Source of the DNA: a virus
UHGV virus genome: UHGV-1378817
Length of the DNA: 64,000 nucleotides
Reading direction: 5' to 3' (one strand)
Shown here: piece after piece, positions 2,518 through 58,766 of the stretch
Numbering within the stretch: position 1 is the stretch's first letter
How the letters are laid out: every line of letters starts with the position of its first letter
Notes under the pieces: generated by a model
Databases searched by the model: none
Seen by the model: only the letters and a program-made list of their open reading frames with translations
What the model was told of the DNA's origin: nothing
Translations under genes and position numbers: made by a program

Positions 2518-2594
2518 TGGTCTCCACGGAGTGATTCGAACACTCGACCTCCTGATCCCAAATCAGGCGCTCTACCAAGCTGAGCTACGCGGAG
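2518..2594 (-). tRNA. tRNA-Pro (anticodon UGG)
   Basis: Minus-strand cloverleaf: 7-bp acceptor stem, anticodon stem CCUGA/UCAGG with loop UUUGGGA, T-loop GTTCGAATC, encoded CCA. Confidence 0.7.
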
Positions 2595-2605
2595 TATTTA
2601 TTATT

Positions 2606-2680
2606 TGGTGGCCCTGGGTGGAATTGAACCACCGTCTGGCGATTATGAGTCGCTTGCTTGAACCTTCCAGCTACAGGGCC
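2606..2680 (-). tRNA. tRNA-Met (anticodon CAU; could be a lysidine-modified Ile tRNA)
   Basis: Acceptor stem GGCCCUG/CAGGGCC, anticodon loop CUCAUAA, T-loop GGTTCAATTCC, encoded CCA. Confidence 0.6.
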
Positions 2681-2681
2681 A

Positions 2682-2757
2682 TGGTGCTGATAGCAGGACT
2701 CGAACCTGCAACCTATTGATTACAAATCAATTGCACTACCAATTGTGCTACATCAGC
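2682..2757 (-). tRNA. tRNA-Thr (anticodon UGU)
   Basis: Acceptor GCUGAUG/CAUCAGC, anticodon stem AUUGA/UCAAU with loop UUUGUAA, T-loop GGTTCGAGTCC, encoded CCA. Confidence 0.65.
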
Positions 2758-2762
2758 AAAAA

Positions 2763-2861
2763 GGTGCTAGGTGATGGAATCGAACCACCTATGTATTCAA
2801 CGACTACCTCGTCTATTTTCAGGATTAAAAATCCTCGCCCTTGCCAAAGGGCTTACCTAGC
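2763..2861 (-). tRNA. type II (long variable arm) tRNA-like gene, anticodon ambiguous
   Basis: Good acceptor stem (GCUAGGU/ACCUAGC), D-arm and T-arm (GGTTCGATTCC) plus a long variable arm, but the anticodon arm only forms a 4-bp stem with loop UUUUUAA; no encoded terminal A. Confidence 0.4.
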
Positions 2862-2959
2862 TCAGTATGTTGACCATGTTGCTAGTCGGCGATGACGACT
2901 GTAACATTTGATAATCCGGTTCTGCTTCCGGCTTTCGCTTAATTACAAGGTCAACAATA

Positions 2960-3049
2960 TGGCTGAGGGTAATGGAATCGAACCATCATCGAGTCATCCT
3001 CAACGGGACGGTTTTCAAGACCGCTTGAGCACCATTGCTCCCTACCCTC
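2960..3049 (-). tRNA. tRNA-Ser (anticodon UGA)
   Basis: Acceptor GAGGGUA/UACCCUC, anticodon loop CUUGAAA, long variable arm, T-loop GGTTCGATTCC, encoded CCA. Confidence 0.6.
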
Positions 3050-3164
3050 ATTTATAAACAATACTGATAATGACACTGATTTTCGAGCAGTTAGTGACTA
3101 GTATAAACGACGATAAATATCAATGCCATTATCTGTATGATTTATGCATTTAAAACTATAAATT

Positions 3165-3251
3165 TGGTGGGGAGTGGTGGAGTCGAACCACCCGAGTCGC
3201 AATGACAATAGATTTACAGTCTACACCGCTACCTCTACGGGATAACTCCCC
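3165..3251 (-). tRNA. tRNA-Tyr (anticodon GUA)
   Basis: Acceptor GGGGAGU/ACUCCCC, anticodon loop CUGUAAA, long variable arm, T-loop GGTTCGACTCC, encoded CCA. Confidence 0.6.
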
Positions 3252-3255
3252 AATT

Positions 3256-3330
3256 TGGCACCCCGTACTGGACTCGAACCAGTGTCAACGGCTTAGAAGG
3301 CCGCTGCTTTATCCACTAAGCTAACAGGGC
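3256..3330 (-). tRNA. tRNA-Arg (anticodon UCU)
   Basis: Acceptor stem with G-U wobbles, anticodon loop CUUCUAA, T-loop GGTTCGAGTCC, encoded CCA. Confidence 0.65.
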
Positions 3331-45474: not shown

Positions 45475-47725
45475 TAAGTTCTTCTCTTTTCTTTTACCGA
45501 GTAATTCGGGTTTTCTGTTCTCTTCGGTTTGAAGGGGTATGGAGATACACCTGAGTGAACAGGGTGAACAACCGAACCATTGGCTATGGCATTAGCATGG
45601 CGAAGCGGACGGGTGACGAAAGAGGGGCCGGAGGACACCAGTCACTGCCATATGATATATGGGTGATAACCTGAAGAGTCTGAATAAGTGTTTAAGTACC
45701 AGTCAGAGGAAAAGGTGAATGGTAGCCGAAGGGGGAGGGGGGTTTCTTGTATCTTTAATTTGTATATTATGTATACACTTGTAAACCAATATCATCTAGA
45801 TCTGTTTACCACACAAAGTGGATAGAGACAAATATTACCTATTAAACTTGAATTATTTATAGAAAATACCACAACACCACTTAAGTCTTTGATTTTACAC
45901 ACAAATCTTACAGATATTCAACCTCCATATTTAACATACCTGTAACATATTCCATACTCTACCTGCCTGATCAATTTCCCCAACTACATCCCTCATATTT
46001 CCCCTGTCTGTACTACCCTGCCCCACCGGGAGTCCCGTCATATCTGGCTTTCCAGCAAATATCACACCCACAAATATCATGCCTGAAGAGGGTTTCATCC
46101 CATAATACCTGCCTTGCCTGAAGAGCGCTTCATACACCACGTAAATTTTTTAATTGACCTCCCCTGCCCCGCCGGAGAGGTTGGCTTTTCCCACACAGAC
46201 CTGAAGAGTCAGCCAGAAATATCTGAATAGGCCCAGTTCTACCACGATTTTGACCTGACCTACAGGAGCGCTGCCAGGCGGACGAAATGGGAATACTTCT
46301 CATTCTTATAACAATTCTCAAATATCGAGGCAGTGAGGCAAATTAATAGGCCAGGCCGTTCACACAGTGGCACAACATTTGCAACCTATCTTGTGGGGGT
46401 GAATGAGAATACCTATCATTGTGAGAACCATTATCATTACGGGCAATTTAACATAATACCCATTATGCGCACCACTGGTGATACATACAGGGATTGATAA
46501 CACGAGTTACAGTTTACGCATATAACAATCATATTTCTTACTATTTGTGTGGGATATAGTTAGCAGCCGATAGATTAGATATTGACCTGTGGACTTCCAA
46601 CCGTCTAGACGTCTAAGCGCCCACACAACAAGGCTTATACATACATTACTGAATGTAAACAGGGCCGCAAAAATGCTACCATACCAGTTTGTAAATTTTC
46701 ATGCAGCACTTGACAAAGAGGAGGAAAACTTGTCTGACACAATGTCACACAATATGACACAATAACGGCTGTTACCATTCCATATCTCACTGTTTACGCA
46801 TAGACTGTTTACGCCTGGATAGTTTACACCTTGACAGTTTACACAGATATGATAAGCCATGACATTCGTTTGCATGAAAACAATTAGCAAGTTAACAATT
46901 AACAAGTTAATAATATATGACATAATATAAAAGCAGGGCAACTATTAGAAGATCTATAGTTGCCTTGCTTGTTATGTCATGATTAACTAAATACAAGGCA
47001 ACTATGATCTGATTAATAGTTTGCAGACAAACTATCACGGGGGTGATGGTTACTGCTTTTATATTATGTCGCGACTCCGTCGCGCCATGCCATTCGTTTG
47101 CATAGTTGCCTTATTGTTACAGATAAAATAATTGTATTGTTAATTATTTCTTATCTTTCTATTAGTCATCTAATGATTCCGGTTAGTATAGTAACGTACA
47201 GTAAACATTAGACGACTAAATATTTCTATGTTTATGATAACCTATCGTGACAATTCCGGACTGTTTACGAAAAATGTTGACACCTGAGCTGATTTATGTT
47301 ATGCAATTTAAACGAATAATTATTTTATGCAGGTATTGACTATTCCGTTATTCTATGGTTGGAATAAATACTTAGCAAGCTATAGAATGGTGAGCGTACG
47401 TAAATTCTGAGATTTGTCGGCTATAGTTATACTCGATTTTTCACGTAGAACACGCTTTTTGGTTTGTGTAAGTGTATGACTTATAAAGATTTTTAGTTGT
47501 TGACAAGATATTGAAGATGTGCATCAGGTTAAATTTTGTGCAATAGCTGCATTACGTGCAATTTTGGAAGGAAAACTGGTAAAAATAGCACCGATACCAC
47601 ACAATGAAAGGTTATGCAATAGCTATTTTATATGTATATTTGTACAGTGTGCAGGATTGATGGCTCGTCAATTATTCCACTTGCCAGGTAGGGCCGTTTA
47701 TGGTAGGGGAAGAGCAGACAAAAAG

Positions 47726-47744
47726 AAAGGGGCCTAAGCCCCTT
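47726..47744 (-). terminator. rho-independent terminator (minus strand)
   Basis: On the minus strand AAGGGGC-ttag-GCCCCTT followed by TCTTTTT, immediately downstream of the stop of ORF 47763-48182. Confidence 0.5.
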
Positions 47745-47762: not shown

Positions 47763-48182
47763 TTATAATGATTCGTATATTTCAAAAATCCGATTTGCCA
47801 GGTCGTTACGGTAGCGGAATTTTTCCTCACGTTTGATCATCAGATCTTTAAAGCCGTATTCTTTAAGCACTTCATTAACTTTATGGCGGCATACCTTCAT
47901 ATTATCTTGAGCGTCACCAATAAACTTGTTGCTGTGGTGCATTGCTTTAATTTCTTCTTCCAGGACCAGGGCAACTACCCGTACCGGATCAAGCTGGTAG
48001 GCGGTAACATCGATGCGGCATTGTAGACGGCTTTTAACGTCTGCCACCGGATATACTGCAACCTCTTCCCCGTCAACATTGACAATAATTAGTTTACCAT
48101 CGATTTCGAATCCTTTCGCCGCCGGACCGTGACAAAAAGCGTTATCAAAGCTATATGCCGGATTATTAGATTTAATGTTCAT
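47763..48182 (-). CDS. hypothetical protein
   Basis: 139-aa ORF. Confidence 0.45.
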   Translation of the reverse strand: MNIKSNNPAYSFDNAFCHGPAAKGFEIDGKLIIVNVDGEEVAVYPVADVKSRLQCRIDVTAYQLDPVRVVALVLEEEIKAMHHSNKFIGDAQDNMKVCRHKVNEVLKEYGFKDLMIKREEKFRYRNDLANRIFEIYESL

Positions 48183-48326
48183 GGTGTTTTTACCTCTTAG
48201 TTAATTTTCTTACAACTTCCCTTCAAAAAAGAATATAGCAAAACTGCCGATCCCTGTCAACCAAGGATGGCATAATTTTTATGTGATCAAGGGGCTTTAT
48301 TGCCCCTGACCATGTAACTTGTTGTA

Positions 48327-48590
48327 TTATTTGTTATTCATCCAGTTTTCCCAAGCTGCCTGATAATCTGCCTCACTGCGGCGGATCTCTTCTTGCTCTT
48401 CAAGCCGGATCTCTTCTTCTAGGTACCCCAAGATATCGGCTTTTTTGGTCTGGCGTAACATCCAATCATCTTTTTTACGGGTAAAGATCTTATATGCTTT
48501 CTCGCAAACCTCTTTTTTGCTACCTTTTTGGACTTCAAGAACTTTGTAGGCCATGTACTGAACTAGTTTGAGCTGATCAAGACGTTTCAT
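48327..48590 (-). CDS. hypothetical protein
   Basis: 87-aa charged ORF. Confidence 0.4.
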   Translation of the reverse strand: MKRLDQLKLVQYMAYKVLEVQKGSKKEVCEKAYKIFTRKKDDWMLRQTKKADILGYLEEEIRLEEQEEIRRSEADYQAAWENWMNNK

Positions 48591-48653
48591 GATGTTTACC
48601 TCTTTATGGGGTTCTGGTTTGGTGTGGGCCTTTTGGCCCGTGTCATTATCTTA

Positions 48654-48926
48654 TTACTTACGGCGGCAAAATTCAAGTGTTTTTAATTGATAATCTTCCT
48701 CAGCTTGGAGTACAACCGCCTCGATCATTTCGTTGGCATTGGTGAAGCCATACCCTTGAGCGAACTCATCCGCGCCACCTTCGTGATCATGTTCTGCGTT
48801 CATCGCTTCCACAAAATGGAATTCAAGATTATTGAGGTAAGGGCTTGATGTTCCGTCCTCTTTTTCGATGAGATCCCAGATAGCATTAAAACGTGATTCG
48901 ACTTCTTGATTAATCCAGCTTGACAT
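48654..48926 (-). CDS. hypothetical acidic protein
   Basis: 90-aa ORF. Confidence 0.4.
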   Translation of the reverse strand: MSSWINQEVESRFNAIWDLIEKEDGTSSPYLNNLEFHFVEAMNAEHDHEGGADEFAQGYGFTNANEMIEAVVLQAEEDYQLKTLEFCRRK

Positions 48927-49139
48927 AATGTTTTCCTCTCTTCTGGTTGTTGTGTGGGCACTTTTGCCCCTTCAAGATAAATGATACCCCCACCACCTGG
49001 CAGATGTCAACGGTTTTTATAGTTTTTTATATAACAGGCACCCCCGGTGATTGTCTCCCCCCGTCGCCAGGTGCCTGCCGTGAAACAAGTATAACAAAAA
49101 ACAGGACCATTGCAAGCCCTGTTTTGTAGTTTATAAATA

Positions 49140-49331
49140 TTATATTTTTTCGCCTATGTAGTCCGGTCGGTTTTTCTCTGTCATGCGCTTTAGCAATTCT
49201 TGCATGTTGCTTATGGCTTGTAGTGTATCCCCTTCCAGGCTTGAATCGACATAATCAGGATCGTCTATGACCTTTCTATGATTATGATAACGCAGTACCG
49301 CCAATACCTTTCTAACTTGTTCGATATTCAT
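49140..49331 (-). CDS. hypothetical protein
   Basis: 63-aa ORF. Confidence 0.35.
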   Translation of the reverse strand: MNIEQVRKVLAVLRYHNHRKVIDDPDYVDSSLEGDTLQAISNMQELLKRMTEKNRPDYIGEKI

Positions 49332-49480
49332 TTTTACCGCTCTTTAAAACAAGGTGCCAACCGTTTCCAATAGATCACTAACTATCAGGACAATACTGAT
49401 CAGCACATATCTAACCATAAGGGGAAAGAGCGCCAGCGATCCCGCCACAATCCCCAAGGTGATGATTATCTTTCTCATGG

Positions 49481-49765
49481 TTAACGGTTTACGTAAGTTT
49501 TCCCGTTCACGGTTATGGGCAGATCCTCCAGGTCTGGATCTTCCTTAAGGTCGCGAGCAAGCTCACCGCACCGGATACCCTCGAATCCGTAGTACTCTGT
49601 CGTGCCGTCCTTAAAAGTTTTAGCGGCAAGGCATAAGCGATAAGTAACCCCGATTCGATTGACGGCATGAATATCCGTTAGATTAACCTCTTTTGCCAGC
49701 TCTTTAGCCATTACAGGCGCATTAAGTCCAACAACCAGGGCAACCACTGCGATCATCTTTTTCAT
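49481..49765 (-). CDS. small secreted protein
   Basis: MKKMIAVVALVVGLNAPVMAKE signal-peptide-like N-terminus. Confidence 0.45.
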   Translation of the reverse strand: MKKMIAVVALVVGLNAPVMAKELAKEVNLTDIHAVNRIGVTYRLCLAAKTFKDGTTEYYGFEGIRCGELARDLKEDPDLEDLPITVNGKTYVNR

Positions 49766-49856
49766 TGTGTCTATCCTCTTTCTGCTACGTTTAAGGCGGA
49801 GGTAACCGCCTGTTTATGCTTTGTTGGTTAATTTTCGGGTATCGGTATAAATTAAA

Positions 49857-50072
49857 CTATGCTGTACGTTCAACTATAACAACGGTTTGGGGGATCTCAC
49901 CTTCCACCACTAATAAGGCCTTTTTCTGCGTGATGGATATCTTTACCCGTTGCAGCGTGGCGGTGAAGTCTTTCATTTCGTCACGTGGTGTTTTAGTGCA
50001 ATACCAGATCTCAGGCTTGCCGATCTGTAAGTTGCGTAAAAATTCCGTTTTGCCTGTTTTGTTAGTGATCAT
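49857..50072 (-). CDS. hypothetical protein
   Basis: 71-aa ORF. Confidence 0.35.
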   Translation of the reverse strand: MITNKTGKTEFLRNLQIGKPEIWYCTKTPRDEMKDFTATLQRVKISITQKKALLVVEGEIPQTVVIVERTA

Positions 50073-50263
50073 TTGCCAACCTCACCCGATACCGTTGGAA
50101 GACAAGATCACATTAGCCATGGTTGCAATCAGGCCAATACCCAGGGCAATAACCAGGATCACCGCATCAATTAATTTCTGTTTCATGGTGTTTATTCTCT
50201 TCTGTTAGTAACCTTATTCATGGGGCCGCTACTACAGCCCCAGGGTAAGGCGGCTATGTGCTT

Positions 50264-50551
50264 TTAGTGTTTCATTCCAACCATCGCGGCACGGATCGCC
50301 GTAGTGCTGTACTTGAAGCCGTCCGGGGTCTTATCTTGTCCGGTTAGCTCCAGAAAAAGCATCATATCCCGCGCCGCATCATTACGATTAGCATTAGCGT
50401 TAATAAAGCCTTGGGCCAACCGGTACAATGACTCATCGTTATTAATCCAAAGGCTTACATTCCAATGAGTTTTGTTTTTGTAACCGTTATAACCTTTATT
50501 GCTTTTCATGGTGTTTACCTCTTCTTTGTTCCAGGTGGCGGACCATTCCAC
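50264..50551 (-). CDS. hypothetical protein
   Basis: 95-aa ORF. Confidence 0.4.
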   Translation of the reverse strand: MEWSATWNKEEVNTMKSNKGYNGYKNKTHWNVSLWINNDESLYRLAQGFINANANRNDAARDMMLFLELTGQDKTPDGFKYSTTAIRAAMVGMKH

Positions 50552-50602
50552 CGCCTTATGTATTATGCTTTGTTAGATGGTTGTTTGTTGTCAAACTATT
50601 TT

Positions 50603-50782
50603 AACGATAATCATCGTACGCTTTATTAACCTGGCGAATATAACATTCAAAAGCCAGATCAATAGATTTATATTCACGGATATATTCACCATAGGAAACC
50701 ACATACATTTCTATAGCTTCCTCATATGCGAGGAGAATAGAATCTAAGCCTACGATCTCAGTCTTTGCAATAATAGCCATGA
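50603..50782 (-). CDS. hypothetical protein (~59 aa)
   Basis: Manual translation MAIIAKTEIVGLDSILLAYEEAIEMYVVSYGEYIREYKSIDLAFECYIRQVNKAYDDYR; preceded on the minus strand by TTGACA-16-TAGTAT promoter, GC hairpin and AGAGGA RBS. Confidence 0.35.
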
Positions 50783-50855
50783 TTTTTATCCTCTTTGTGG
50801 TTGGTGGGGCTTGTTGCCCCCTTTGATTTATATACTACAGTCTTATATGGTCATG

Positions 50856-51089
50856 TCAACTATTTTCAAAAAATTTTTCTGCTGTAATATTTTTCCCGGT
50901 AGGGTTCGCTACTTTCAAAATTTTATCATGCACTGGACGCCCAAAAGAATAAGCGCCGTACACAGTGCACCAATAATCGCCGTCAGGCTGTACTATTACC
51001 GCCGCATAGGGTACGCCTTTTTCGTTTTTGCTGACAAAATAGATCACGTTGCCATTAATAGCCTCGGCGCGTTTAATTTGTTCCATCAT
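50856..51089 (-). CDS. hypothetical protein
   Basis: 77-aa ORF. Confidence 0.4.
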   Translation of the reverse strand: MMEQIKRAEAINGNVIYFVSKNEKGVPYAAVIVQPDGDYWCTVYGAYSFGRPVHDKILKVANPTGKNITAEKFFENS

Positions 51090-51145
51090 GATGATTTGCC
51101 TCTCTTTATTTTCATAATTGGGGGGCCTTTTCGGCCCAGCCAGGT

Positions 51146-51430
51146 TTATTTATTGATAGCGTGCAGCGGGAAAGGTACGCCAGGTTGATAGATAACTTTT
51201 ACAACCTCATCAGGACAAAAGAAGTTGCAGAACTCACCGCAATAGGCCTCATCCTCTTTCAACTCTTCATCAATATACTCAAAAAAGTAGTCGATGCTTG
51301 GATAATCTTGCCCTGGGTTATAGTCAACCATTGTCAGGACCAGTTCAAGATCGTTGCGTAGGATATGCATACCCGCTTTTAAGTATTTTGCTTCCATTTC
51401 TACTACATCGCCAGCGGTAACAATAGCCAT
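51146..51430 (-). CDS. hypothetical acidic protein
   Basis: 94-aa ORF. Confidence 0.4.
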   Translation of the reverse strand: MAIVTAGDVVEMEAKYLKAGMHILRNDLELVLTMVDYNPGQDYPSIDYFFEYIDEELKEDEAYCGEFCNFFCPDEVVKVIYQPGVPFPLHAINK

Positions 51431-51657
51431 GGTTTTAACTCCTATCTATCCGGTTAATGATTGGGGGCCGCCCCCCTGATGAGTCCTATTATCCATATTG
51501 TAGGGCTTGATGCAAGTACTTATTTAAAAAATTTTTTAAGCGCTCCGTATGCCGTTGTAACGCCAAAATAATAAAGGCCATGCAACCGCATAGCCTTTAT
51601 GTGATTATATCGCTGCAGGCCCTGCCAGGGGCCTTATTTTGCATCATTTTACCGGAA

Positions 51658-51957
51658 CTATACAGAGAAAACATCGTTCACAATAGCGATCACAATGCCG
51701 CCCACCTTGTCACGGTCAACAATGCACAAATCACCATAAATCATGTGGTAGTCTGGATGATCTTTCACGGAATAGTCAATGAGTGTTTTCTTGTCGTCCA
51801 GCTTTGTAACTTCCATTCTCATAACGATATGAGAATCATCAAAGGCATTATTCCGAAAAGTCATAGCCTGACCACCAGGGCACCCAGTGATCTCAACTTC
51901 CACACCGTCTACGATCTGACCATCAAAGAAATAAAGATTATTAGCCGGGATAAACAT
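51658..51957 (-). CDS. hypothetical protein
   Basis: ORF 51658-51966 trimmed to ATG (MFIPANN) with AAGGAG RBS; downstream of palindromic promoter copy 1. Confidence 0.4.
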   Translation of the reverse strand: MFIPANNLYFFDGQIVDGVEVEITGCPGGQAMTFRNNAFDDSHIVMRMEVTKLDDKKTLIDYSVKDHPDYHMIYGDLCIVDRDKVGGIVIAIVNDVFSV

Positions 51958-52001
51958 GTTTATCACTCCTTGTTAACTGCGTGTTATTTTACCACGATTA
52001 A

Positions 52002-52047
52002 AATTTACTTTACCGATGGCCCTGAAGTCAAGGCCATCTAAAAATAA
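52002..52047 (-). promoter_or_regulatory. conserved palindrome-embedded promoter element, copy 1
   Basis: About 46 bp, near-identical to copies at 55714 and 56335; on the minus strand a TTGAC -35 sits inside the inverted repeat GATGGCC...GGCCATC. Confidence 0.55.
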
Positions 52048-52049
52048 AT

Positions 52050-52250
52050 TTACAGGCCTACAATCTCTTTGATTCGTTTTACTGCTGCCTCAGCGCCTTG
52101 GGGGTAGAAATTATGGTAACCGATCACGCGAGTGATACTAATCGCCGTTTGATGATCTTCATAATCGCCCTTGAAGATTTCTTGACCGTCAATCAGCACG
52201 GCAATTTTTTCTTCTTTTTTGAAGTTAATAACGCGGATATTGTTGCTCAT
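52050..52250 (-). CDS. hypothetical protein
   Basis: 66-aa ORF. Confidence 0.4.
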   Translation of the reverse strand: MSNNIRVINFKKEEKIAVLIDGQEIFKGDYEDHQTAISITRVIGYHNFYPQGAEAAVKRIKEIVGL

Positions 52251-52727
52251 TTTGTTTCTCCTTTCTGGTTTTTGTGTTGGTGGGGATTAGCTCCCCGTTG
52301 ATTGTCATTATCCACATTCTGGACCGGATTGCAACACCCCGGAAGAAAAATTTTTTAAAAAGATAGGCCCCATGATCGGGGGCTGTTCTTAGTTACTTAC
52401 TGCGATAAAGTACATCCCTACGCCTAGCAATATTTCAAGGGCGATGATCTCAAGCCATACCATAACCCGGCGCGCCTTATCGGTGCGGGGCTTATCCTTG
52501 GTTGTCATCGTCTCCCCCTTTCCTCCTGGTAGTAGTGACGCGATCTACAATGACCCCCAGGAGTCCTATCACGACACACATCACGAGAAAAATTATCTCC
52601 GCTGTTGTTCGGTCCATTATTATAAAAGTCCTCAAGATCAGGCCTGAAAATAAAGCTTTCGTTATTGAATCCATCACGCCAGGCGGCTGGCTTCAAATCT
52701 TCATTAAAGGGATTAATTAACGTGGTA

Positions 52728-53099
52728 TTATTTAAACGGCTGGCCCACATATTTTCTATTCCTCTCAAATAGGCGATCCGCCTCAGTTAAACATATCTCA
52801 TGGGCTTGATCTCTGGTTTTAGCTTCATCAAAAACCTGTTGCGCCAGGCTGCAACGTAGGGAGACTGGAAGATCACTATAATAGGCGTTGACAAACGTTT
52901 GAGCGTCGTACAGGTCTGAAAATACTTTACCCTTTCTATTATCGCCTTTGTCAACAATTGCAAGGATAACAAGTACAATAGTTGCAACCACCCCCAGGAA
53001 AATAGATATAATAAACCATAAAAAGGCGGATCTACCTATCTTGCCAGCGATCCAGGCGTTGAACAAGGCAACTACTACAGCCAAAATAATAAATTCCAT
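52728..53099 (-). CDS. membrane protein
   Basis: ORF 52728-53132 trimmed to Met MEFIILAVVVALFNAWIAG; two hydrophobic helices; AGAGG RBS. Confidence 0.45.
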   Translation of the reverse strand: MEFIILAVVVALFNAWIAGKIGRSAFLWFIISIFLGVVATIVLVILAIVDKGDNRKGKVFSDLYDAQTFVNAYYSDLPVSLRCSLAQQVFDEAKTRDQAHEICLTEADRLFERNRKYVGQPFK

Positions 53100-53163
53100 T
53101 CTATGTACCTCTTTTGTAGTTCTGTTTAACAATAAGGCGGCAAATATGCCGCCTGTTACCTGA

Positions 53164-53544
53164 TTAAAAATTATCGCCGTAAATCTTTCCGCTTTCTACC
53201 CATACCACCACGCGAGGCATACTATCCCACACGTCTTGTTTTAGATTGAGCGCGTGCAATTCTTCGGTGGTGCTCATACCGGGCACGGGCTGATTGTATA
53301 CTGCAAAACGACCGCCTGCATAATCATAGGCCAGGGTTAAATCACACTGGATCATCTTTTTGATCATGGCATTAAGCATGGCGTTAGCCGCATATTGATC
53401 ACGTTTTAAAGGCAACTCTTTGATTAGTTTGCGATAGTTTTCGATATGGTCGCACACTGTTTCACGAGGAAGATCTTTCATATCTTCACGGAATGTAACC
53501 AGGTTAAACATAACGGTGTCAATAGCCTTGGTAGTGTTTTTCAT
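53164..53544 (-). CDS. hypothetical protein
   Basis: 126-aa ORF. Confidence 0.4.
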   Translation of the reverse strand: MKNTTKAIDTVMFNLVTFREDMKDLPRETVCDHIENYRKLIKELPLKRDQYAANAMLNAMIKKMIQCDLTLAYDYAGGRFAVYNQPVPGMSTTEELHALNLKQDVWDSMPRVVVWVESGKIYGDNF

Positions 53545-53634
53545 GATGTTATCCTCTTTGTTTTGTGTTGGGGCAAACGTCTTGCCCCCTTGAGTTTTAA
53601 TATAGCAGGTTTTTAGGTTATTGCAACACTTTAT

Positions 53635-54258
53635 TTATGAAAAAGTCATCTCACCATATTCATCGACATCAAACCGCCAATCATTGGCCTCGATAAGGCC
53701 GATCAGGTTTTCTGCGGTGAACTGTTCTAGATAGGCCTCCTTCAGGTCTACGTAAACCTTGCGGGATAGCTCCCGTACCGTCTCGGTGATCAGTTCTTCC
53801 AGGTCTTCCACTTTGTTTTCTTGTTTGGCGGTCAGATCTAGCCAAGTGGTATCAATGTACCCGCTTACAGTGTTTTCATGGCTGTAATGGCTGTACTTGT
53901 CGCGTTCAACACTGGCTGATAACTCGCCATCGTGCATTGTGCCGAACAAGTGACGAATTGATCGGAACTTGGTCAGGGCCTTTACTTTACGCAAAAATTT
54001 TTCTAAATCCACGTTTTCAGCACTGATTGACGCGCCGTCACCCTGGCACCAAAAGCCGGACCAATGTACTTCGGTATCTTCAAGGCCGTACTCTGGAAAG
54101 ATATATTCTTTGTAGTGTTCAATTACACTTTCTGCAAAAAAGTTATCCCCGCTGTGTTCTTCTCTTTCGCGGACCATTTCAATAGCTTTTTCTTTTTGTT
54201 CGTCGGTCAGCACGTCGAAAGATAAATTGTAACCTGTGGTAATGTTAACGGTGGTCAT
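53635..54258 (-). CDS. hypothetical protein
   Basis: 207-aa ORF; contains FWCQGDGASIS; no family assignable by eye. Confidence 0.45.
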   Translation of the reverse strand: MTTVNITTGYNLSFDVLTDEQKEKAIEMVREREEHSGDNFFAESVIEHYKEYIFPEYGLEDTEVHWSGFWCQGDGASISAENVDLEKFLRKVKALTKFRSIRHLFGTMHDGELSASVERDKYSHYSHENTVSGYIDTTWLDLTAKQENKVEDLEELITETVRELSRKVYVDLKEAYLEQFTAENLIGLIEANDWRFDVDEYGEMTFS

Positions 54259-54332
54259 GATATTTTCTCCTATTTTCTTTGTTAGTGGCGGGAAAACTTC
54301 CCGCCTGTGTGCTTAAGTATACTTATTGAGAT

Positions 54333-54593
54333 TTACTTGTCAACACTATTTTTTAAATTATTGTGGCGTAAAATATTCAAGATCTCTTCAACGTCATCAA
54401 CACGGCGGCAATTTTTAAACGCTACCAATTGCCCCAGGATTTTAATCACTGGACGGCCTTGCCAGTGCCCTTGGAGAAAGCGCGCTTTAACTTTATCGGT
54501 GGAACTATCACGCCACCAAATAGCCTTGTTGTTGCAGTAGTAAAAATTATTCAGGATAACATCAACTTTATCAAAATTTTTTAATTTACGCAT
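54333..54593 (-). CDS. hypothetical protein
   Basis: 86-aa ORF preceded by a minus-strand TTGACA-16-TATACT promoter. Confidence 0.4.
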   Translation of the reverse strand: MRKLKNFDKVDVILNNFYYCNNKAIWWRDSSTDKVKARFLQGHWQGRPVIKILGQLVAFKNCRRVDDVEEILNILRHNNLKNSVDK

Positions 54594-54997
54594 GGCGTTT
54601 ACTCCTTTCTCTCTTTGATGTGGTTAGTATAGCTAACCTGTTGACGATGTCAATGATATTTTTAACGCCATGAAACGGCCCTGGGCGATGTTTTCAGGTT
54701 AAAGGGGGCGATTGCATAGGTGGGGCCTTTTTGGCGCTTACAGGGCCAACCAGGGGCGCTATTCGTAGGATAGAAATAAAAAGCCCCGCACAATGGCGGG
54801 GCGTTGGTTGTTATTTGCCTTTGTGGCGGTATCGTTCCGCCTGTCGTTCACGTTCCAAAAGCAGGCCCGGTAATTTGCGATCATAATGATTCCGCCAGAT
54901 CTTCCCAAATCTTTTTGGCTTATTCAGTTTATTGTTGCGCTGGCGGCGTTCCGGCAGCTCTTCGGAAGCATGAGATCGCTTTACAATCTTCTCAAAA

Positions 54998-55351
54998 TTA
55001 ATCTTCATATATTCCCCCCTTGCTAACTTCAATATTGGCCTGAATAGCCCGGATACGGCGCTTTATAACTTCCTGATCTGTGTGATCGTATCCCCAAAAG
55101 TCTACGATTTTTGCGCCTCCAGCCTTTAGGCGGTATAGTGTTTCTTGCATCTTGTAAGCCGGGATCGGTCGCGGTGTTACCTGGTCGCCCTTCTCATTCT
55201 TGTACTTGATAATGTAGTCTTCATTGTCGTTGAATACCCAAAATGGGTATTCTGTGAGCGCGTTGCTCTCTTTTTCGTTTTTAGATTGGATCTTGTTTAC
55301 AATTAAAGCCGTAGCAATAGCGCCAATAATAAAACTTGCCCCGCTGATCAT
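54998..55351 (-). CDS. membrane-anchored protein
   Basis: ORF 54998-55414 trimmed to Met MISGASFIIGAIATALIV; AAGGAG RBS. Confidence 0.4.
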   Translation of the reverse strand: MISGASFIIGAIATALIVNKIQSKNEKESNALTEYPFWVFNDNEDYIIKYKNEKGDQVTPRPIPAYKMQETLYRLKAGGAKIVDFWGYDHTDQEVIKRRIRAIQANIEVSKGGIYED

Positions 55352-55426
55352 GTACTTTCTCCTTTCATTGTGTTGATAAACTGTCTTTATAGATGGCCCT
55401 GCTACCAGGACCACCGAAAAAACAGC

Positions 55427-55672
55427 TTATTTGACGATACCGACAAAACAGATCCCGCCTTCCCCTATATAGGCAATATCGGTAATTTTATAATTTGTCA
55501 AGATCCGCGTGTTCAGATCATTAATAAAATCGGTCATCGCGTTGGTGTAGTTGTCTTCCGTGTCTAAGGCATAATCCCAGGTGTAAACCTTTTTACGTCC
55601 GAAGCCTTTTACCATGATACGGGCGCTTTTGGTGTTGGTAGGGGCATAATATTTAGTGATTAGTGCTGCCAT
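55427..55672 (-). CDS. hypothetical protein
   Basis: 81-aa ORF with AGGAG RBS; downstream of palindromic promoter copy 2. Confidence 0.45.
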   Translation of the reverse strand: MAALITKYYAPTNTKSARIMVKGFGRKKVYTWDYALDTEDNYTNAMTDFINDLNTRILTNYKITDIAYIGEGGICFVGIVK

Positions 55673-55713
55673 GGTTTTAACTCCTATGCATTAGTTCAGT
55701 GTTAACAGTATAA

Positions 55714-55759
55714 AGTTTACTTTATTGATGGCCCTAAAGTCAAGGCCATCTAAAAATAA
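55714..55759 (-). promoter_or_regulatory. conserved palindrome-embedded promoter element, copy 2
   Basis: AGTTTACTTTATTGATGGCCCTAAAGTCAAGGCCATCTAAAAATAA on the plus strand; same element as copies 1 and 3. Confidence 0.55.
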
Positions 55760-55761
55760 TC

Positions 55762-56103
55762 TTACTCGTTTTCTTCCAGCTCCGCAAGCTCTTCTTTTGC
55801 TTCTTCCAACCCTGTCTGTAATTCCTGGTATTCTTCATCGTCCTCAATATCCAGGCTGTCGATGTAGTCGCTAAATCCGCAGCGGTAAGCGATAGGATCT
55901 AGCTCCTTGAGGATACGCGACGGAAGAAAAGAAATGTTTCCGATCATAATTTCGCCGTAGATCTCGTCTAACCATTCATCATAGTTTTCGTCGTACTTGT
56001 CCTCGTCGATTTCAAAGTTATCGATCTTATTCTCAAGGTCTGCGATCTGTTTTTTCAGCGCGGCGATCTGCATAGCTTTTTCTGCGGCGGTCATAGTAGT
56101 CAT
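55762..56103 (-). CDS. hypothetical acidic coiled-coil protein
   Basis: 113-aa ORF, highly acidic C-terminus. Confidence 0.4.
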   Translation of the reverse strand: MTTMTAAEKAMQIAALKKQIADLENKIDNFEIDEDKYDENYDEWLDEIYGEIMIGNISFLPSRILKELDPIAYRCGFSDYIDSLDIEDDEEYQELQTGLEEAKEELAELEENE

Positions 56104-56179
56104 GGTGTTTTTCTCCTTTTGTGTGTTCTGGGAAGTTTTCCCGTTTATGTGCTTATTATATCGATTTAAGTTAGCTTGT

Positions 56180-56302
56180 CAATTAAAAGTTTAAGAAAAA
56201 TTTTGCGACACCGTTGGCGCTACCCATCAACATTTGCGCCAGGATGTACCCAATGATGCAAACGATGATGGTTACCTTTGTGTGCTGGCGTGTAGTACTC
56301 AT
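56180..56302 (-). CDS. small hydrophobic membrane peptide (~40 aa)
   Basis: Manual translation MSTTRQHTKVTIIVCIIGYILAQMLMGSANGVAKFFLNF; G-rich RBS; downstream of palindromic promoter copy 3; below the ORF-track cutoff. Confidence 0.35.
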
Positions 56303-56334
56303 CTTTAAGCCCCCTTTTCCGCTCAACTGTGGTT

Positions 56335-56380
56335 AGTTTACTTTATTGATGGCCCTGGTGTCAAGGCCATCTAAAAATAA
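56335..56380 (-). promoter_or_regulatory. conserved palindrome-embedded promoter element, copy 3
   Basis: AGTTTACTTTATTGATGGCCCTGGTGTCAAGGCCATCTAAAAATAA; differs from the other copies mainly in the 3-nt palindrome centre. Confidence 0.55.
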
Positions 56381-56382
56381 GC

Positions 56383-56787
56383 TTAATAAGTTTTCAGTAC
56401 TTTCCCGTCCAATCTGTCAAGCTGGATCTCGATAGCTGCAGAAAACCTATTGTAAACCACATCACCCATAGAATCCAACCAGTCTATGACATTATACACT
56501 TGCTCTTTGTTCTTGCAGGTCCGGATCCGTTTCATGATGTAAGCCGGATCAATATTGGTACTCTCGTTGGTGTTCCCCTGTACCTTGTTTGCCGTATTAG
56601 TTACATCTTTAATGGCCTTTACCACCACCTGGAATGGCTTTAAGGTGCCTTTTGCGTTCATCTCACGCGCTTTTGCGGCGCGGTTGTTATATGTTACACA
56701 ACGGCGGCAAATGTTGATCAAATGCATGTCAATAATTTTTTCATCGTTTGCCAACTCGTTCATGATGCGGCGTACGTTCTTATTCAT
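56383..56787 (-). CDS. hypothetical protein
   Basis: 134-aa ORF; minus-strand TTGACA promoter, GC hairpin and RBS upstream. Confidence 0.45.
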   Translation of the reverse strand: MNKNVRRIMNELANDEKIIDMHLINICRRCVTYNNRAAKAREMNAKGTLKPFQVVVKAIKDVTNTANKVQGNTNESTNIDPAYIMKRIRTCKNKEQVYNVIDWLDSMGDVVYNRFSAAIEIQLDRLDGKVLKTY

Positions 56788-56869
56788 GATCTTTTTCCTT
56801 TGTGCTGGCGGGAAACATTCCCGCCTTTTGTGTCTAGTTTATTTAAATTTTGCAGCGTGTCAATGATTT

Positions 56870-57268
56870 TTATTCGTGGGCGCATGTTACAATGTGCTTT
56901 TTATAGCCCAGGTGGTCAGCAAGTGCCGACAAAAACTCTTCTTCGTAGATCCAGCCGTCGGCAGTGATCCCCATAGCATTTAATGCGCTCTCAAGTGCTG
57001 CGTTAGCTTTATCGTAACCGTGACCGCTCGCCTTGCCGCCAGTATAACCGTACTTATTGTTCTTGTTGTCGTGAATCCAAAACACGCAGTAGTGAGTGTT
57101 ACCACTGGCGGCGGCATAATACCGGATCTCAGCTACTTCGTGCAAATTATTGTCATCGTCCAGGCCCACCAGATTATAAGCCTTGTAAAATCCACGATCA
57201 CGGCGGCAGTTCTTGACATCAGAAAAAGAAAAGTCCGCATTATCAAAATTAAAGGTAGTGGTTTTCAT
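56870..57268 (-). CDS. hypothetical protein
   Basis: 132-aa ORF. Confidence 0.45.
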   Translation of the reverse strand: MKTTTFNFDNADFSFSDVKNCRRDRGFYKAYNLVGLDDDNNLHEVAEIRYYAAASGNTHYCVFWIHDNKNNKYGYTGGKASGHGYDKANAALESALNAMGITADGWIYEEEFLSALADHLGYKKHIVTCAHE

Positions 57269-57332
57269 GATTTTATCCTCTTAGTGTCTTTTGTGCTTTT
57301 AGTGTATTTGGTGTCGGACTATATGTCAATAC

Positions 57333-57530
57333 TTATTTTTTATTAAACCAGTGGTTGATCTGTCCTTTTGTCAGGGCGCAACGATTAAGCTGTTGCCGGG
57401 TATAGCTCTGACCGCGACGGAATTTATAAAGGCCTTGCCCGTTGTTGATGGTTACGTCCACCTGGCAAACCATTTGATCGGTGACCACCTGGCGAGTGTT
57501 GCGACGTACTTTGATCCCGTATGCGTTCAT
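57333..57530 (-). CDS. small basic protein
   Basis: ORF 57333-57608 trimmed to Met MNAYGIKVRRNTRQ with AGAGGA RBS; minus-strand TTGACA-16-TATTAT promoter near 57590-57620. Confidence 0.4.
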   Translation of the reverse strand: MNAYGIKVRRNTRQVVTDQMVCQVDVTINNGQGLYKFRRGQSYTRQQLNRCALTKGQINHWFNKK

Positions 57531-57611
57531 AAATTTATCCTCTTTACTGGTTAGTGCGGTGTTGTTCACCTTGTAGGGTAATAATACCATGATTAACCTT
57601 GTTGTCAACGA

Positions 57612-57752
57612 TTATTTTAAATTATTTTTATGATAGAATCCACCTGCCGCCCCCGCCAGGTTAACCACCATTTTTTCGTACTCTTCTTTATGTTCTCGCG
57701 CTTCTGTATCATTAATCACTACATTTCCCAGGTGAGTAGCATTACCTTTCAT
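57612..57752 (-). CDS. hypothetical small protein (~46 aa)
   Basis: Manual translation MKGNATHLGNVVINDTEAREHKEEYEKMVVNLAGAAGGFYHKNNLK with GGAGGT RBS. Confidence 0.3.
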   Translation of the reverse strand: MKGNATHLGNVVINDTEAREHKEEYEKMVVNLAGAAGGFYHKNNLK

Positions 57753-58766
57753 TTTTGTACCTCCTCTTCAATTGTTTTCCCTACAGCATGGGCCTACCAG
57801 GTTTGCAAGATTTCACCCTCTCCCACCTGGTCAGTTAGGTCCTGCCAGGCTGGCCCCGCCAGGTTGCAACGGTTAGCGCATCAGGTTAGAAAAATTTTTT
57901 GAAAAGGTGTTGACAGCGGCCCCGCCAGGTGGCACAATATACCTATCGAAAGGACGGCAGGCACCGGTGACGGGGGAGACAACCACCGGGGATGGGCGCT
58001 GCATAAAATGAGAACGGTTATCATTATCATTTAAAAATTTATGCAAAAAATCCTTGCCTTCTTTGTCCTGTGTGATACTATAATAACAAGCCGGGGCAAC
58101 AGGGGCCGGGAGACAATCACCGGGCCTGCCCGTTATTCTGCAAACGAGAATGATTATCATTCAAAATTCTAAATGAGAACTCCTCGCATTTAATAAATTT
58201 AATTAGCACGCTAATTACCCTCCGTAACAATTTCCTATAAAATAGTATCCACTAAAATATTCCCATATAGAAATTTTAAAAATCCATTTCTGAAAACGAA
58301 AAATCGATTTCGTCCCCAAAAATTTCAGGTCGAGAGCTGGAACGATTTCCAGAAAATCCGATTCAGAAAACGAAAAACAGATCGAGTACTGAGAAATTTA
58401 TCGAGAAAAATTTTCAGAAAATTCAATCTTTGAAACGAAAAACAGATCGAGTACTTGGAAAGCTGTACCGCAACTTCAAGATAGTGGCTGGATTATTGCC
58501 ATAAAAGGCCAAGGGCGAGTGGGAAAGTTCTGGTAGAAGGGTGTGAGCATACGCGGAAAATCTGGAATGGTAGCCCGGAATATGACGCAAACGATAGGAT
58601 GAGTGGTTCAGCTCATCGTGTCTACCCTGAAAAATCCATTTTAGTTTTCGATCCGTTTTCTGATTTTCTAAGAATTTTAAAATATCTGGCCTGGTGAAAT
58701 ATCAAAAAGGAGGAAATCCATTTTAGAAATCCCCCTTATACTTGATATGCCAGAAATTTTCAAGTA
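57753..58766. repeat. 1-kb ORF-free, repeat-rich intergenic region
   Basis: No credible ORF; GCCCCGCCAGGT(T/G) repeats, two tandem paralogous units, 68-bp-spaced direct repeats, AAATCCATTT motifs; itemised in findings. Confidence 0.55.

Follow-up and report, generated by a model that had tools for sequence, protein, structure and literature searches.

The question raised by this locus is what a short GC-rich hairpin is doing between a promoter and the small gene that follows it, over and over again. The window (the whole stretch of 64,000 nucleotides that was analysed) belongs to an rV5-like Vequintavirus of E. coli, and its positions 47763–57608 form a minus-strand array of small genes without known function, of which 28 were counted; genes are named below by the coordinate of their start codon and all coordinates refer to the minus strand. 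A full cassette, i.e. a sigma70-like promoter, a GC hairpin in the leader, an A/C-rich linker and an SD-ATG, in that order and within a repeated module of ~85 bp, precedes 10 of the 28 genes, about a third (56787, 56103, 54258, 53544, 52250, 51430, 50780, 50509, 48926 and 48590). Four genes (56302, 55672, 51957 and, in degenerate form, 55351) have a 55-nt repeat (family D1) with a hairpin, GATGGCC..GGCCATC, that spans the −35; a promoter without a GC hairpin is found at four (57530, 57268, 54593 and 48182), a hairpin without a recognisable promoter at four (53099, 51089, 50186 and 49765) and neither at six, which brings the genes without a recognisable promoter to 10/28. An earlier note on this DNA had put the cassette in front of nearly every small gene; this was an overstatement, as 10 of the 28 have it in full and ~17–18 have a promoter of their own. 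It was right that many genes are served by individual near-consensus sigma70-type promoters, and the same promoters are listed in the rV5 genome paper.

The cassette of gene 56787 (56785–56863) has a −35 TTGACA (56858–56863), a 16-nt spacer, a −10 TAAACT (56836–56841), the hairpin GGCGGGAA-tgt-TTCCCGCC (56807–56825) and the linker AGCACAAAGGAAAAAGATC ahead of the ATG at 56787. Those of the other genes are built alike: 56103 (56101–56182; TTGACA-16-TATAAT, 12/12; hairpin GGGAA-aac-TTCCC, 56130–56142, 12 nt after the −10), 54258 (54256–54343; TTGACA-16-TATACT; hairpin GGCGGGAA-gtt-TTCCCGCC, 54287–54305), 53544 (53542–53626; TTGCAA-16-TATATT; hairpin GGGGCAAG-acg-TTTGCCCC, 53570–53588, its pairing kept through changes in orthologues), 52250 (52248–52334; TTGCAA-16-GATAAT; hairpin GGGGA-gctaa-TCCCC, 52282–52296), 51430 (51428–51515; TTGCAT-16-GATAAT; hairpin GGGGG-gcgg-CCCCC, 51463–51476), 50780 (50778–50859; TTGACA-16-TAGTAT; hairpin GGGGC-aacaa-GCCCC, 50806–50820), 48926 (48924–49010; TTGACA-18-TATCAT; hairpin GGGCA-aaag-TGCCC, 48956–48969) and 48590 (48588–48676; TTGAAT-17-TAAGAT; hairpin GGGCC-aaaa-GGCCC, 48626–48639). 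In that of gene 50509 (50507–50594; hairpin 50533–50556), TTGACA is followed by CATAAT 21 nt on (AAGCAT at 18 nt), a spacing that is 17 nt in isim and AlexBoehm. The three hairpins that the earlier note had quoted (genes 56787, 50780 and 48590) are thus all present.

The second class of hairpin, which that note had missed, encloses the −35 (GATGGCC-TTGACaccag-GGCCATC, 56348–56371, gene 56302); there are copies ahead of genes 55672 (55727–55750) and 51957 (52015–52038) and a degenerate one ahead of gene 55351 (55392–55415; 64% identity to the reference copy) in which the −35 is lost. The promoters without a leader hairpin are those of genes 57530 (57581–57608; TTGACA-16-TATTAT), 57268 (57301–57329; TTGACA-17-TACACT) and 48182 (48232–48260; TTGACA-17-TATATT), and that of gene 54593 lacks a GC hairpin (54626–54653; TTGACA-16-TATACT). 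Ahead of gene 49765 there is the hairpin AGGCGG-ttacct-CCGCCT (49794–49811) with a decayed promoter; similar promoter-less hairpins lie ahead of genes 51089 (~51122–51137) and 50186 (~50222–50241).

The hairpins come after the −10 and fall within the predicted transcript, as had been proposed. The stem starts 10–12 nt past the −10 in 8 of the 10 window cassettes (5 and 8 nt in the other two), with a mode of 10 nt among 71 unique cassettes from 10 phages. Position 7 after the −10 is C in 43/69 unique cassettes and position 8 is A in 45/69; C-A is the start context preferred by E. coli promoters, and the transcript is therefore predicted to start ~3 nt ahead of the stem, leaving ~3 unpaired nucleotides. 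When the 10 predicted leaders are folded, each has its hairpin at a distance of 1–5 nt from the 5′ end, and the SD is for the most part left open. It is always the 5′ arm of the stem that is the G-rich one (62% G and 1% T in unique cassettes), and the stems differ widely among copies (GGCGGGAA, GGGGC, GGGCA, GGGCC, GGGAA). With strict hairpin criteria, ~72 GC-hairpin starts per strand are found in 64 kb; 6 promoters of the array have a GC hairpin starting 10–11 nt after the −10 versus ~0.2 expected (an estimate for 18 promoters), and on the plus strand of the whole window such a hairpin occurs at 1 of 89 promoter-like sites, so that the arrangement is far from chance. Promoter-like sites (64 versus 40 expected) and terminator-like sites (37 versus 16 expected) are both enriched. 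The motif ACAAAG(A/G), said to precede the SD, is enriched window-wide (42 versus 26 expected) but its exact form is found ahead of only 5 of the 28 starts; the linker is better described as A/C-rich and G/T-poor, leading into AAGAGG or AAGGAG.

Phages of the Stephanstirmvirinae and a jumbo coliphage share the cassette (Phapecoctavirus ZCKP1, two Justusliebigvirus phages and jumbo phage E9.1), with compensatory changes in the stems. When a model was built from those other-lineage phages alone, its four best matches in the window were four window cassettes; for model R1 the best window match was the cassette of gene 56787 (E 0.011). The covariation analysis called for in the earlier note gave a score of 0.194 versus 0.106 in shuffles (0/500 reached 0.194), on an alignment that was fitted to the model, with 98% pairing in the inner helix and only 53% in the outer one; one stem pair reads GU 27, CG 19, AU 15 and GC 4. 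Among relatives, the GGGGG/CCCCC of gene 51430 is GGAGG/CCTCC at the same place in MiataMamis, which carries a different 9-bp hairpin in the cassette of gene 56787. The hairpins are thus conserved in related phages, so that the lack of conservation that would have refuted the earlier note's reading was not observed, and the structure is, as judged from these comparisons, probably selected. An analogous arrangement was also found in unrelated mycobacteriophages.

The closest known system, overlooked in the earlier note, is the PeSL (promoter-early stem-loop) cassette of the T4-type phages RB49/phi1, T4/PST and KVP40/nt-1 (PMC2839356, PMC4122927), of which the window cassette is a variant with the hairpin in the leader and not inside the promoter. 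In both, a sigma70 early promoter close to the consensus has AT-rich DNA upstream of it and, next to it, a stem-loop in which a G run precedes a C run, and the unit ends on its 3′ side with an SD and start codon. Both are repeated in plastic parts of the genome, ahead of small genes without known function, and indel or replacement junctions between close relatives fall within the motif. Hairpins of the second class, those over the −35, do have a counterpart in one PeSL subclass. However, in our analysis the RB49 stem-loops lie in the spacer or over the −10, and are therefore absent from the transcript started there, whereas those of the main window class, 10–12 nt after the −10, are transcribed. 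The PeSL papers list a subclass ‘downstream of −10, just before the start’, yet treat every stem-loop as a terminator. Unlike in PeSL, no A/U tract follows the window hairpins, and the phages that carry the two kinds of cassette are not related (Vequintavirinae, Stephanstirmvirinae and a jumbo phage versus Straboviridae).

For a cassette that has a fixed geometry, is conserved in three coliphage lineages and lacks terminator features, the explanation that we hold with moderate confidence is that of an autonomous early-gene expression unit, in which a 5′-terminal hairpin stabilises and insulates the mRNA and which, by being repeated, drives a modular shuffling of genes. Each module has a strong host sigma70 promoter; the GC stem-loop, ~3 nt after the predicted start, would be the very 5′ terminus of the mRNA, and behind it come an A/C-rich linker without structure and a strong SD-ATG. 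Among the functions suggested earlier (nuclease processing site, protein-binding site or mRNA stabiliser) we infer from the predicted 5′ ends that the stabiliser is to be favoured: E. coli RppH and RNase E require a single-stranded 5′ end (reviewed in PMC3997798), and a paired one would for this reason slow 5′-end-dependent decay. The hairpin may double as an insulator, so that the ribosome site stays open no matter what precedes the module. As summarised in that review, the 5′ UTR stem-loops of ompA and papA (Emory, Bouvet and Belasco 1992, via PMC3997798) are likewise short hairpins a few nucleotides from the 5′ end, with pairing as the sole sequence requirement and a single-stranded leader and ribosome site behind them; they differ in that the 5′ end of the phage cassette is a predicted one and the phage element is repeated ~ten times in 10 kb as a promoter-fused mobile unit. 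Several observations count against a stabiliser. The hairpin is found at only 10/28 genes and is absent from four strong promoters, and three leaders are no better folded than shuffled controls (z = +0.13, −0.51 and −1.25). In 12 Vequintavirus genomes per-site variation is 0.68 in loops and 0.29 in stems, a contrast that favours a selected structure, but the stems vary no less than the flanks (0.29), so that only the loops stand out. The B. subtilis enzyme needs at least 2 unpaired nucleotides (PMC3997798), and a tail of ~3 nt may still admit RppH. As RNase E is able to bypass ordinary stem-loops during scanning, the hairpin in read-through transcripts would not block it.

The ~85-bp repeated module would also offer homology for recombination, and thereby for shuffling of small genes within and between phage lineages, a role that has also been proposed for PeSL. 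Insertions, deletions and replacements among relatives, as seen by sequence comparison, have their breakpoints within the −35, linker or SD-ATG region, and the cassette, whose role as a junction the earlier note had missed, is clearly a crossover point for gene swapping between phages. At gene 50780 the −35 is the crossover of a gene replacement in FV3, where the change to a Stephanstirmvirinae-type cassette falls precisely on TTGACA; the cassette of gene 50509 is the crossover of replacements in EdH4, DrSchubert, nomo and MiataMamis, and EdH4 changes over to a Stephanstirmvirinae-type cassette just past TTGACAACA. In MiataMamis a 587-nt three-gene module is inserted between the −35 and −10 of the gene 54593 promoter; in Gotham a 271-nt gene module is inserted in the linker of the gene 48590 cassette, and a deletion runs from one SD-ATG region to another. 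Gene 48182 and its promoter are missing from EdH4, nomo, FV3 and Gotham. Intergenic junctions are in part what selection for viable recombinants would give, which counts against the shuffling reading.

It may be argued that the hairpins are terminators or attenuators of transcription from the upstream gene, with the promoters restarting it, so that the array is a chain of insulated units. They are GC-rich and intergenic, several are entered as ‘putative transcriptional terminator’ in the EdH4 record, and the PeSL authors assigned this role to their stem-loops (PMC2839356, PMC4122927), one of which, in the work on RB49/phi1, lowered lacZ read-through to the same degree as rrnB T1. However, the 8 nt after the stem hold 0–2 T in 69 of the 71 unique cassettes (the stretch is 54% A), as the earlier note's denial of a terminator role would have it, and hairpins placed behind the predicted start of the next promoter would also attenuate what that promoter itself transcribes. 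They were not picked up when the rV5 authors searched for terminators. Canonical U-tract terminators, a separate hairpin class, are nearby: there are six in the array region, at 54774–54802 (GCCCCGCCATTGTGCGGGGC-TTTTTATTT), 47720–47744, 49093–49125, 51565–51595, 52357–52383 and 53128–53154, and three of these lie upstream of promoters that also carry a leader hairpin (49093–49125 for gene 48926, 51565–51595 for gene 51430 and, just upstream, 52357–52383 for gene 52250). Because the U-tract is absent and true U-tract terminators precede three of the same promoters, the leader hairpins are not canonical terminators. They share with these a GC-rich stem of 5–10 bp, a loop of 3–5 nt and an intergenic position, and some databases call them terminators, but they lie downstream of the promoter start rather than upstream of the promoter. 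In the promoter-coupled terminators of Fletcher et al. (bioRxiv 10.64898/2026.08.19.745784), hairpin and promoter elements also overlap between tandem genes, a likeness that fits best the second class and 49093–49125; in their model, part of the next promoter is supplied by the terminator sequence itself, whereas the leader hairpins are found past the start and lack a terminator tail. Overall, termination seems an unlikely function.

An improbable alternative is a site for a phage or host RNA-binding factor that co-ordinates early messages (antitermination as with lambda N/boxB, timed shut-off or protection). Placement relative to the promoter is fixed, the 5′ arm is uniformly G-rich, and an apical AAU(A/G)GU is common to 21 of 30 unique Stephanstirmvirinae and jumbo-phage hairpins in spite of differing lower stems; yet it occurs in only 2 of 19 unique hairpins of the window's own lineage, Vequintavirus, where the loops change fastest, it is explicable by shared ancestry of the copies, and no candidate binding protein emerged. 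Given that both stems and loops vary from copy to copy, the window phage gives no indication of a site read by a sequence-specific protein. The lambda nut-site boxB is also a small hairpin in early leader RNA directly downstream of an early promoter. It has a conserved loop read by N and is joined by boxA; in contrast, loops in the window's lineage vary freely and no boxA-like element was seen. Cleavage of a polycistronic early RNA alongside the hairpin, by RNase III as in T7 early RNA or by RNase E, which would cut in the AU-rich promoter segment and leave a product capped by the hairpin, is very unlikely. The AU-rich spacer upstream of a stable hairpin would be a plausible RNase E context, and the promoter-less hairpins of genes 51089, 50186 and 49765 are intercistronic. 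However, RNase III needs about two helical turns, far beyond stems of only 5–10 bp, which makes it an unlikely agent; the tight spacing to the −10 favours a transcription start over a cut site, and no conserved cleavage motif was found. Finally, the hairpin could lack an RNA function and be a DNA-level recombination signal, or a passenger of a successful mobile promoter module, as suggested by the indel junctions within cassettes, by four promoters that work, on paper, without any hairpin and by the crossover that the PeSL authors placed in the loop of a stem-loop. This is quite improbable: most crossovers are at the −35, linker or SD-ATG region and not at the hairpin. Exceptions are the junctions 49099 and 49124, which are both at a terminator-promoter hairpin, and a single presence/absence event between a pair of similar hairpins (47743/48289). 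Moreover, pairing is maintained through compensatory changes and whole-hairpin replacement, the mycobacteriophage arrangement speaks against this reading too, and the hairpins are always oriented and placed for transcription at the 5′ end.

The reiterated promoter-hairpin unit of the interval 47763–57608 (minus strand) is real, although fewer genes have it than first claimed. It belongs to the promoter-early stem-loop (PeSL) type of early-gene cassette, as a variant with a leader hairpin, and is common to several large coliphage lineages. Over its full length the interval is 93–95% identical to rV5-like Escherichia coli myoviruses of the genus Vequintavirus (navn, JES2013, FFH2, rV5_ev168, Murica and ~290 further records). 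Its genes are coded on the minus strand and all are annotated as hypothetical in the matching records; for the ten largest proteins, no Pfam family was found above the cut-off and the PHROGs matches were to unknown-function groups only. In the rV5 genome paper this stretch is part of the minus-strand transcription unit 10-1-238-164, with predicted promoters P164–P195 and U-tract terminators t164, t177, t181 and t184; leader hairpins are not mentioned there.

We counted 28 minus-strand genes in the interval. The full arrangement (sigma70-like promoter, GC hairpin past the −10 element, A/C-rich linker and Shine–Dalgarno (SD)-ATG region) precedes 10 of them, namely, by start-codon coordinate, genes 56787, 56103, 54258, 53544, 52250, 51430, 50780, 50509, 48926 and 48590. 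The claim of an earlier note that it stands before almost every gene is therefore overstated as a general rule, while the three hairpins quoted in that note were all located (50806–50820, 56807–56825 and 48626–48639). Another four genes (56302, 55672, 51957 and, in degenerate form, 55351) have a 55-nt repeat whose −35 element lies within a hairpin, GATGGCC..GGCCATC; four (57530, 57268, 54593 and 48182) have a promoter without a GC hairpin, four have a hairpin without a recognisable promoter and six have neither. The promoter-hairpin pattern is highly non-random: under strict criteria, a GC hairpin starts 10–11 nt past the −10 element at 6 promoters of the interval (~0.2 expected by our own estimate), and on the whole plus strand the same arrangement is seen at only 1 of 89 promoter-like sites.

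The promoters, which are also those of the rV5 list, combine TTGACA or TTGCAA with TAnnnT at a distance of 16–18 nt (16 nt in 8 of the 10 full cassettes) and have AT-rich upstream runs such as AAAAATTTTTTGAAAA. In the promoter of gene 50509 (50562–50594), a 4-nt insertion (an ACAA repeat) has stretched the spacer between TTGACA and CATAAT to 21 nt, versus 17 nt in phages isim and AlexBoehm, and may have weakened this promoter in the window phage. The stem begins 10–12 nt past the −10 element in 8 of the 10 window cassettes, and the mode of this distance is 10 nt in the set of 71 unique cassettes from ten phages on which the cassette statistics were computed. Downstream of the −10 element, position 7 is C in 43 and position 8 is A in 45 of 69 cassettes. 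Escherichia coli promoters ordinarily initiate at the A of such a C-A context, so that the start is predicted at the A of position 8, with ~3 unpaired nt before the stem. In the 71 cassettes the stem is 5–10 bp long, the G-rich arm is in every case the 5′ one (62% G, 1% T), the 3′ arm has 58% C, the mean folding energy is −11.3 kcal/mol, and A and T make up 54% and 10%, respectively, of the ten nucleotides 3′ of the stem. All ten predicted window leaders fold with the hairpin 1–5 nt from the predicted 5′ end and with the ribosome site largely open; their folding z-scores are between −1.55 and −2.80 in seven cases and unremarkable in three (−1.25, −0.51 and +0.13). The motif ACAAAGR, supposed to precede the starts, is present in exact form at five of them only; the true feature is an A/C-rich, G/T-poor linker leading into AAGAGG or AAGGAG. 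Repetition extends to the SD-ATG regions: an identical 20-mer, ATAGGAGTTAAAACCATGGC (minus strand), stands before two different genes, at 51426–51445 and 55668–55687, and several further regions are 80–95% alike.

The hairpins are conserved in related phages. They are present in other Vequintavirus phages, and the architecture is also found, in a more regular form, in Stephanstirmvirinae (Klebsiella phage ZCKP1, phages outra and UAB_1) and in the 368-kb coliphage E9.1, where it reads TTGACA-N16/17-TAAnnT-GTATCACATAG-GGCGGCAatggTGCCGC (or GGCGGGAAAtggTTTCCCGCC), with an A/C-rich linker and ATG downstream. Among 12 Vequintavirus genomes, loops show 0.68 and stems 0.29 changes per site, the flanks being equal to the stems (stem, loop, start-region and linker rows were used; the −35/−10 rows were left out owing to a labelling clash with codon positions). 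Stems that have changed keep their pairing among Vequintavirus orthologues: in MiataMamis, cassette 51430 has GGAGG/CCTCC in place of GGGGG/CCCCC and cassette 56787 has an unrelated 9-bp hairpin, and the hairpin of cassette 53544 displays G·U-mediated variants. A MAFFT alignment of 73 cassettes was abandoned, as RNAalifold recovered only 4 pairs from it because hairpins with 3-nt and 4-nt loops had been set in different registers; a covariance model was used instead and covariation was computed on the model's own alignment of 91 matches. The covariation score was 0.194 versus 0.106 in shuffles (reached in 0 of 500) and lay above all slid controls. In this alignment 98% pairing is seen in the inner helix and 53% in the outer one, which is poorly registered, and one pair occurs as GU (27), CG (19), AU (15) and GC (4). 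The model was built from Stephanstirmvirinae and E9.1 only, and its four best matches in the window were four of the window cassettes (E from 0.011 to 3, 128 kb searched).

The closest described system is the PeSL of T4-type phages, in which a strong sigma70 promoter is combined with a polyG/polyC stem-loop and an SD-ATG region; PeSLs recur throughout hyperplastic regions, in front of small genes of unknown function, and have been shown or argued to bring about modular shuffling and mini-circles. The window has in common with it a sigma70-consensus early promoter with an AT-rich upstream region, an adjacent stable stem-loop, typically with a G run ahead of a C run, a plastic region of small genes of unknown function whose content differs among close relatives, and indel or replacement junctions of relatives that fall within the motif. 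The difference lies in the position of the stem-loop. Direct inspection of RB49 placed its stem-loops in the spacer or over the −10 element, hence outside the transcript started there; unlike stem-loops in such within-promoter positions, which are the commonest in PeSLs and act on upstream transcripts, those of the main class begin 10–12 nt past the −10 element, in the predicted transcript, and have no A/U tail. Only the four copies of the 55-nt repeat, with their hairpin over the −35 element, have a within-promoter placement in the window. In the literature searched, the term PeSL was found in T4-like contexts only, and we found neither an account of leader hairpins in rV5-, phAPEC8- or phi92-like phages (an earlier mention in the phi92 or PVP-SE1 genome papers is possible) nor transcript-start data for Vequintavirinae or Phapecoctavirus.

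Junctions were surveyed against 11 Vequintavirus genomes. Insertions, deletions and replacements in the interval amount to about a dozen distinct events, of which several break within cassette elements: at the −35 element (50854, 50586–50589 and 54648), in the linker (48595–48621) or in the SD-ATG region (50206/50495). Collinearity of FV3 with the window ends at the TTGACA of the gene 50780 cassette; a near-identical copy of a cassette of Justusliebigvirus outra and different genes come next. EdH4, DrSchubert and nomo switch directly 3′ of TTGACAACA in the gene 50509 cassette, as does MiataMamis. In the latter, a module of 587 nt with three genes has also been inserted into the gene 54593 promoter, between its −35 and −10 elements, TTGACA being kept in both resulting promoters. 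In Gotham and CM1, a crossover joining two SD-ATG regions of similar sequence (36-nt overlap) has removed gene 50509, and in Gotham cassette 48590 has a duplicated linker and, inserted in it, a 271-nt gene. Gene 48182 and its promoter show presence/absence between two similar hairpins. The other homology anchor of several gene replacements (junction 50128) is a gene at 50082–50186 (minus strand) for a 34-amino acid hydrophobic peptide, MKQKLIDAVILVIALGIGLIATMANVILSSNGIG, conserved even in Stephanstirmvirinae. Intergenic junctions would in part be expected from selection for viable phages alone; however, several crossovers fall precisely at the −35 hexamer and cassettes of the Stephanstirmvirinae type have been imported into Vequintavirus genomes, both of which speak for the repeated cassettes as the recombination substrate, and we take the survey as good comparative evidence for modular gene shuffling.

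What the hairpin itself does can be read in several ways. A role as terminator or attenuator agrees with the EdH4 record (MK327930; 3871–3885, 10218–10236 and others), where software-based annotation labels several leader hairpins 'putative transcriptional terminator'. However, no more than two T are present among the eight nucleotides past the stem in 69 of 71 cassettes, and none of the ten leader hairpins of the window was called in a minus-strand terminator scan or appears among the terminators of the rV5 authors; the earlier note was right on this point. The same 10 kb does contain six hairpins with proper U-tracts, each either upstream of a promoter or past a stop codon, and four of them agree with the rV5 authors' list. 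Cassettes 52250, 51430 and 48926 possess both an upstream U-tract terminator and a leader hairpin, so the latter is no substitute for a terminator. The terminator labels on leader hairpins lacking a U-tract are probably mis-annotations, systematic across Vequintavirus genomes. A terminator role on the plus strand was also dropped, as a T-run is found there in few copies only. A nuclease processing site, as suggested earlier, is unlikely for RNase III, which requires ~20 bp or more of double-stranded RNA versus stems of 5–10 bp here. As a purely DNA-level passenger, the hairpin would simply accompany the recombining cassettes; against this stand its preserved pairing and its place in the predicted transcript. 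An N4-type hairpin promoter was rejected, since the hairpins follow ordinary sigma70 promoters at a fixed spacing; the lack of a phage RNA polymerase in phage CB7 of the related genus Certrevirus, as published, was counted against it too.

Recognition by a protein is the remaining rival. In lambda boxB, N reads a conserved loop accompanied by boxA, whereas the loops of the Vequintavirus hairpins are their most variable part (0.68 changes per site) and just 2 of 19 unique hairpins carry the apical motif AAU(A/G)GU. A CsrA-type GGA site was discarded, the commonest Stephanstirmvirinae hairpin, GGCGGCAAUGGUGCCGC, having no GGA, and a search of the whole window with Rfam 15 at gathering thresholds matched only tRNAs (2521–3330) and no family for the leader hairpins. 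The apex AAU(A/G)GU is conserved in Stephanstirmvirinae and jumbo coliphages, and we consider it possible, though unlikely, that hairpins bearing it are a shared RNA signal through which a dedicated phage or host factor would decide what becomes of all early messages together, whether by protection, by timed shut-off or by antitermination. In that case the promoter-hairpin-SD unit would be a mobile regulatory element that unrelated phage families exchange on a common host, and mycobacteriophages would have an independent counterpart.

IMG/VR was scanned with the pattern TTGACA-N16/17-TANNNT-N9-12-GGCGGGAA. There were 129 matches versus ~85 expected by our own estimate, and the exact complementary arm, TTCCCGCC, was present in 7 only; these are mostly chance matches that say little on distribution, and only loci with multiple copies are informative. 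Mycobacteriophage Thonko (comparison locus L031, MH632120 61850–69471) has four copies in 3.6 kb of TTGACA-N17-TAACTT-N11-GGCGGGaagtaCCCGCC-GGGAAG..ATG, in which the hairpin GGCGGG-aagta-CCCGCC lies ~11 nt past TAACTT and is followed by SD and ATG; related loci are L045, L048, L053, L059 and L062. As the stem sequence was set by the search pattern itself, only the architecture counts as evidence, and this layout of promoter, near-start hairpin and SD is the same in these high-GC phages, which are unrelated to coliphages. The actinophage echo favours a general function at the RNA 5′ end over a lineage-specific binding site.

We favour, as plausible, an autonomous early-gene module whose hairpin would stabilise and insulate the mRNA. 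RppH and RNase E require a single-stranded 5′ end, which is the accepted cause of stabilisation by 5′ secondary structure (PMC3997798). With the start at the conserved A of position 8, as predicted, the hairpin would stand ~3 nt from the 5′ end, like an ompA-type stabilising stem-loop, and would shield the message from both enzymes. In ompA, protection is reportedly gone once about five or more unpaired nucleotides stand before the stem. In that type pairing matters over sequence, and here too the stems differ between copies, with compensatory changes in orthologues and paralogues. The G/T-poor linker should be unable to pair with the C-rich 3′ arm, so that the ribosome site would be open whatever lies upstream. 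Against a stabiliser, four strong promoters have no hairpin, a 3-nt tail may still admit RppH, and simple stem-loops can be stepped over by scanning RNase E. Should the 5′-hairpin reading be true, the cassette would be a standardised, portable expression part (promoter, mRNA stabiliser/insulator and ribosome site) that would give any newly acquired small gene strong, early expression with no need for tuning; being repeated, it would also ease gene swapping, even across phage subfamilies. It would extend the PeSL idea past T4-like phages, with a second, RNA-level function, and help to account for the mosaicism of early regions, in which genes for anti-defence and host takeover tend to accumulate. 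The cassettes, whose hairpins currently stand as terminators in GenBank records, would offer compact natural parts for phage engineering and synthetic biology.

Other features of the window were also recorded. Three tandem copies of a 57-nt A/T-rich repeat, GAAAATCCGATTCAGAAAACGAAAAACAGATCGAGTACT..., spaced 65–74 nt, lie at 58266–58461, where there are few plausible ORFs; they could be origin iterons or the 'non-coding' box of the rV5 map. A GC-rich element of 30–37 nt with the core CCGGTGATTGTCTCCC and arms 78–90% complementary, for which no Rfam match was found, occurs at 58108–58136 and 57972–58008, both times after an AT-rich AATGATAAT stretch, and inverted at 49025–49061. The motif ACCTGG(C/T)(A/G)GG(G/C)C has 8 matches with at most one mismatch (1.1 expected), including those at 51134 and 51619; four cluster in 57650–57930, the segment most variable among relatives. 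Finally, seven tRNA genes are found at 2518–3330 (minus strand), for Pro, Met, Thr, Ser, Tyr and Arg and one without an assigned type, which has a 4-nt anticodon according to ARAGORN and scores only 35.5 bits in Rfam.
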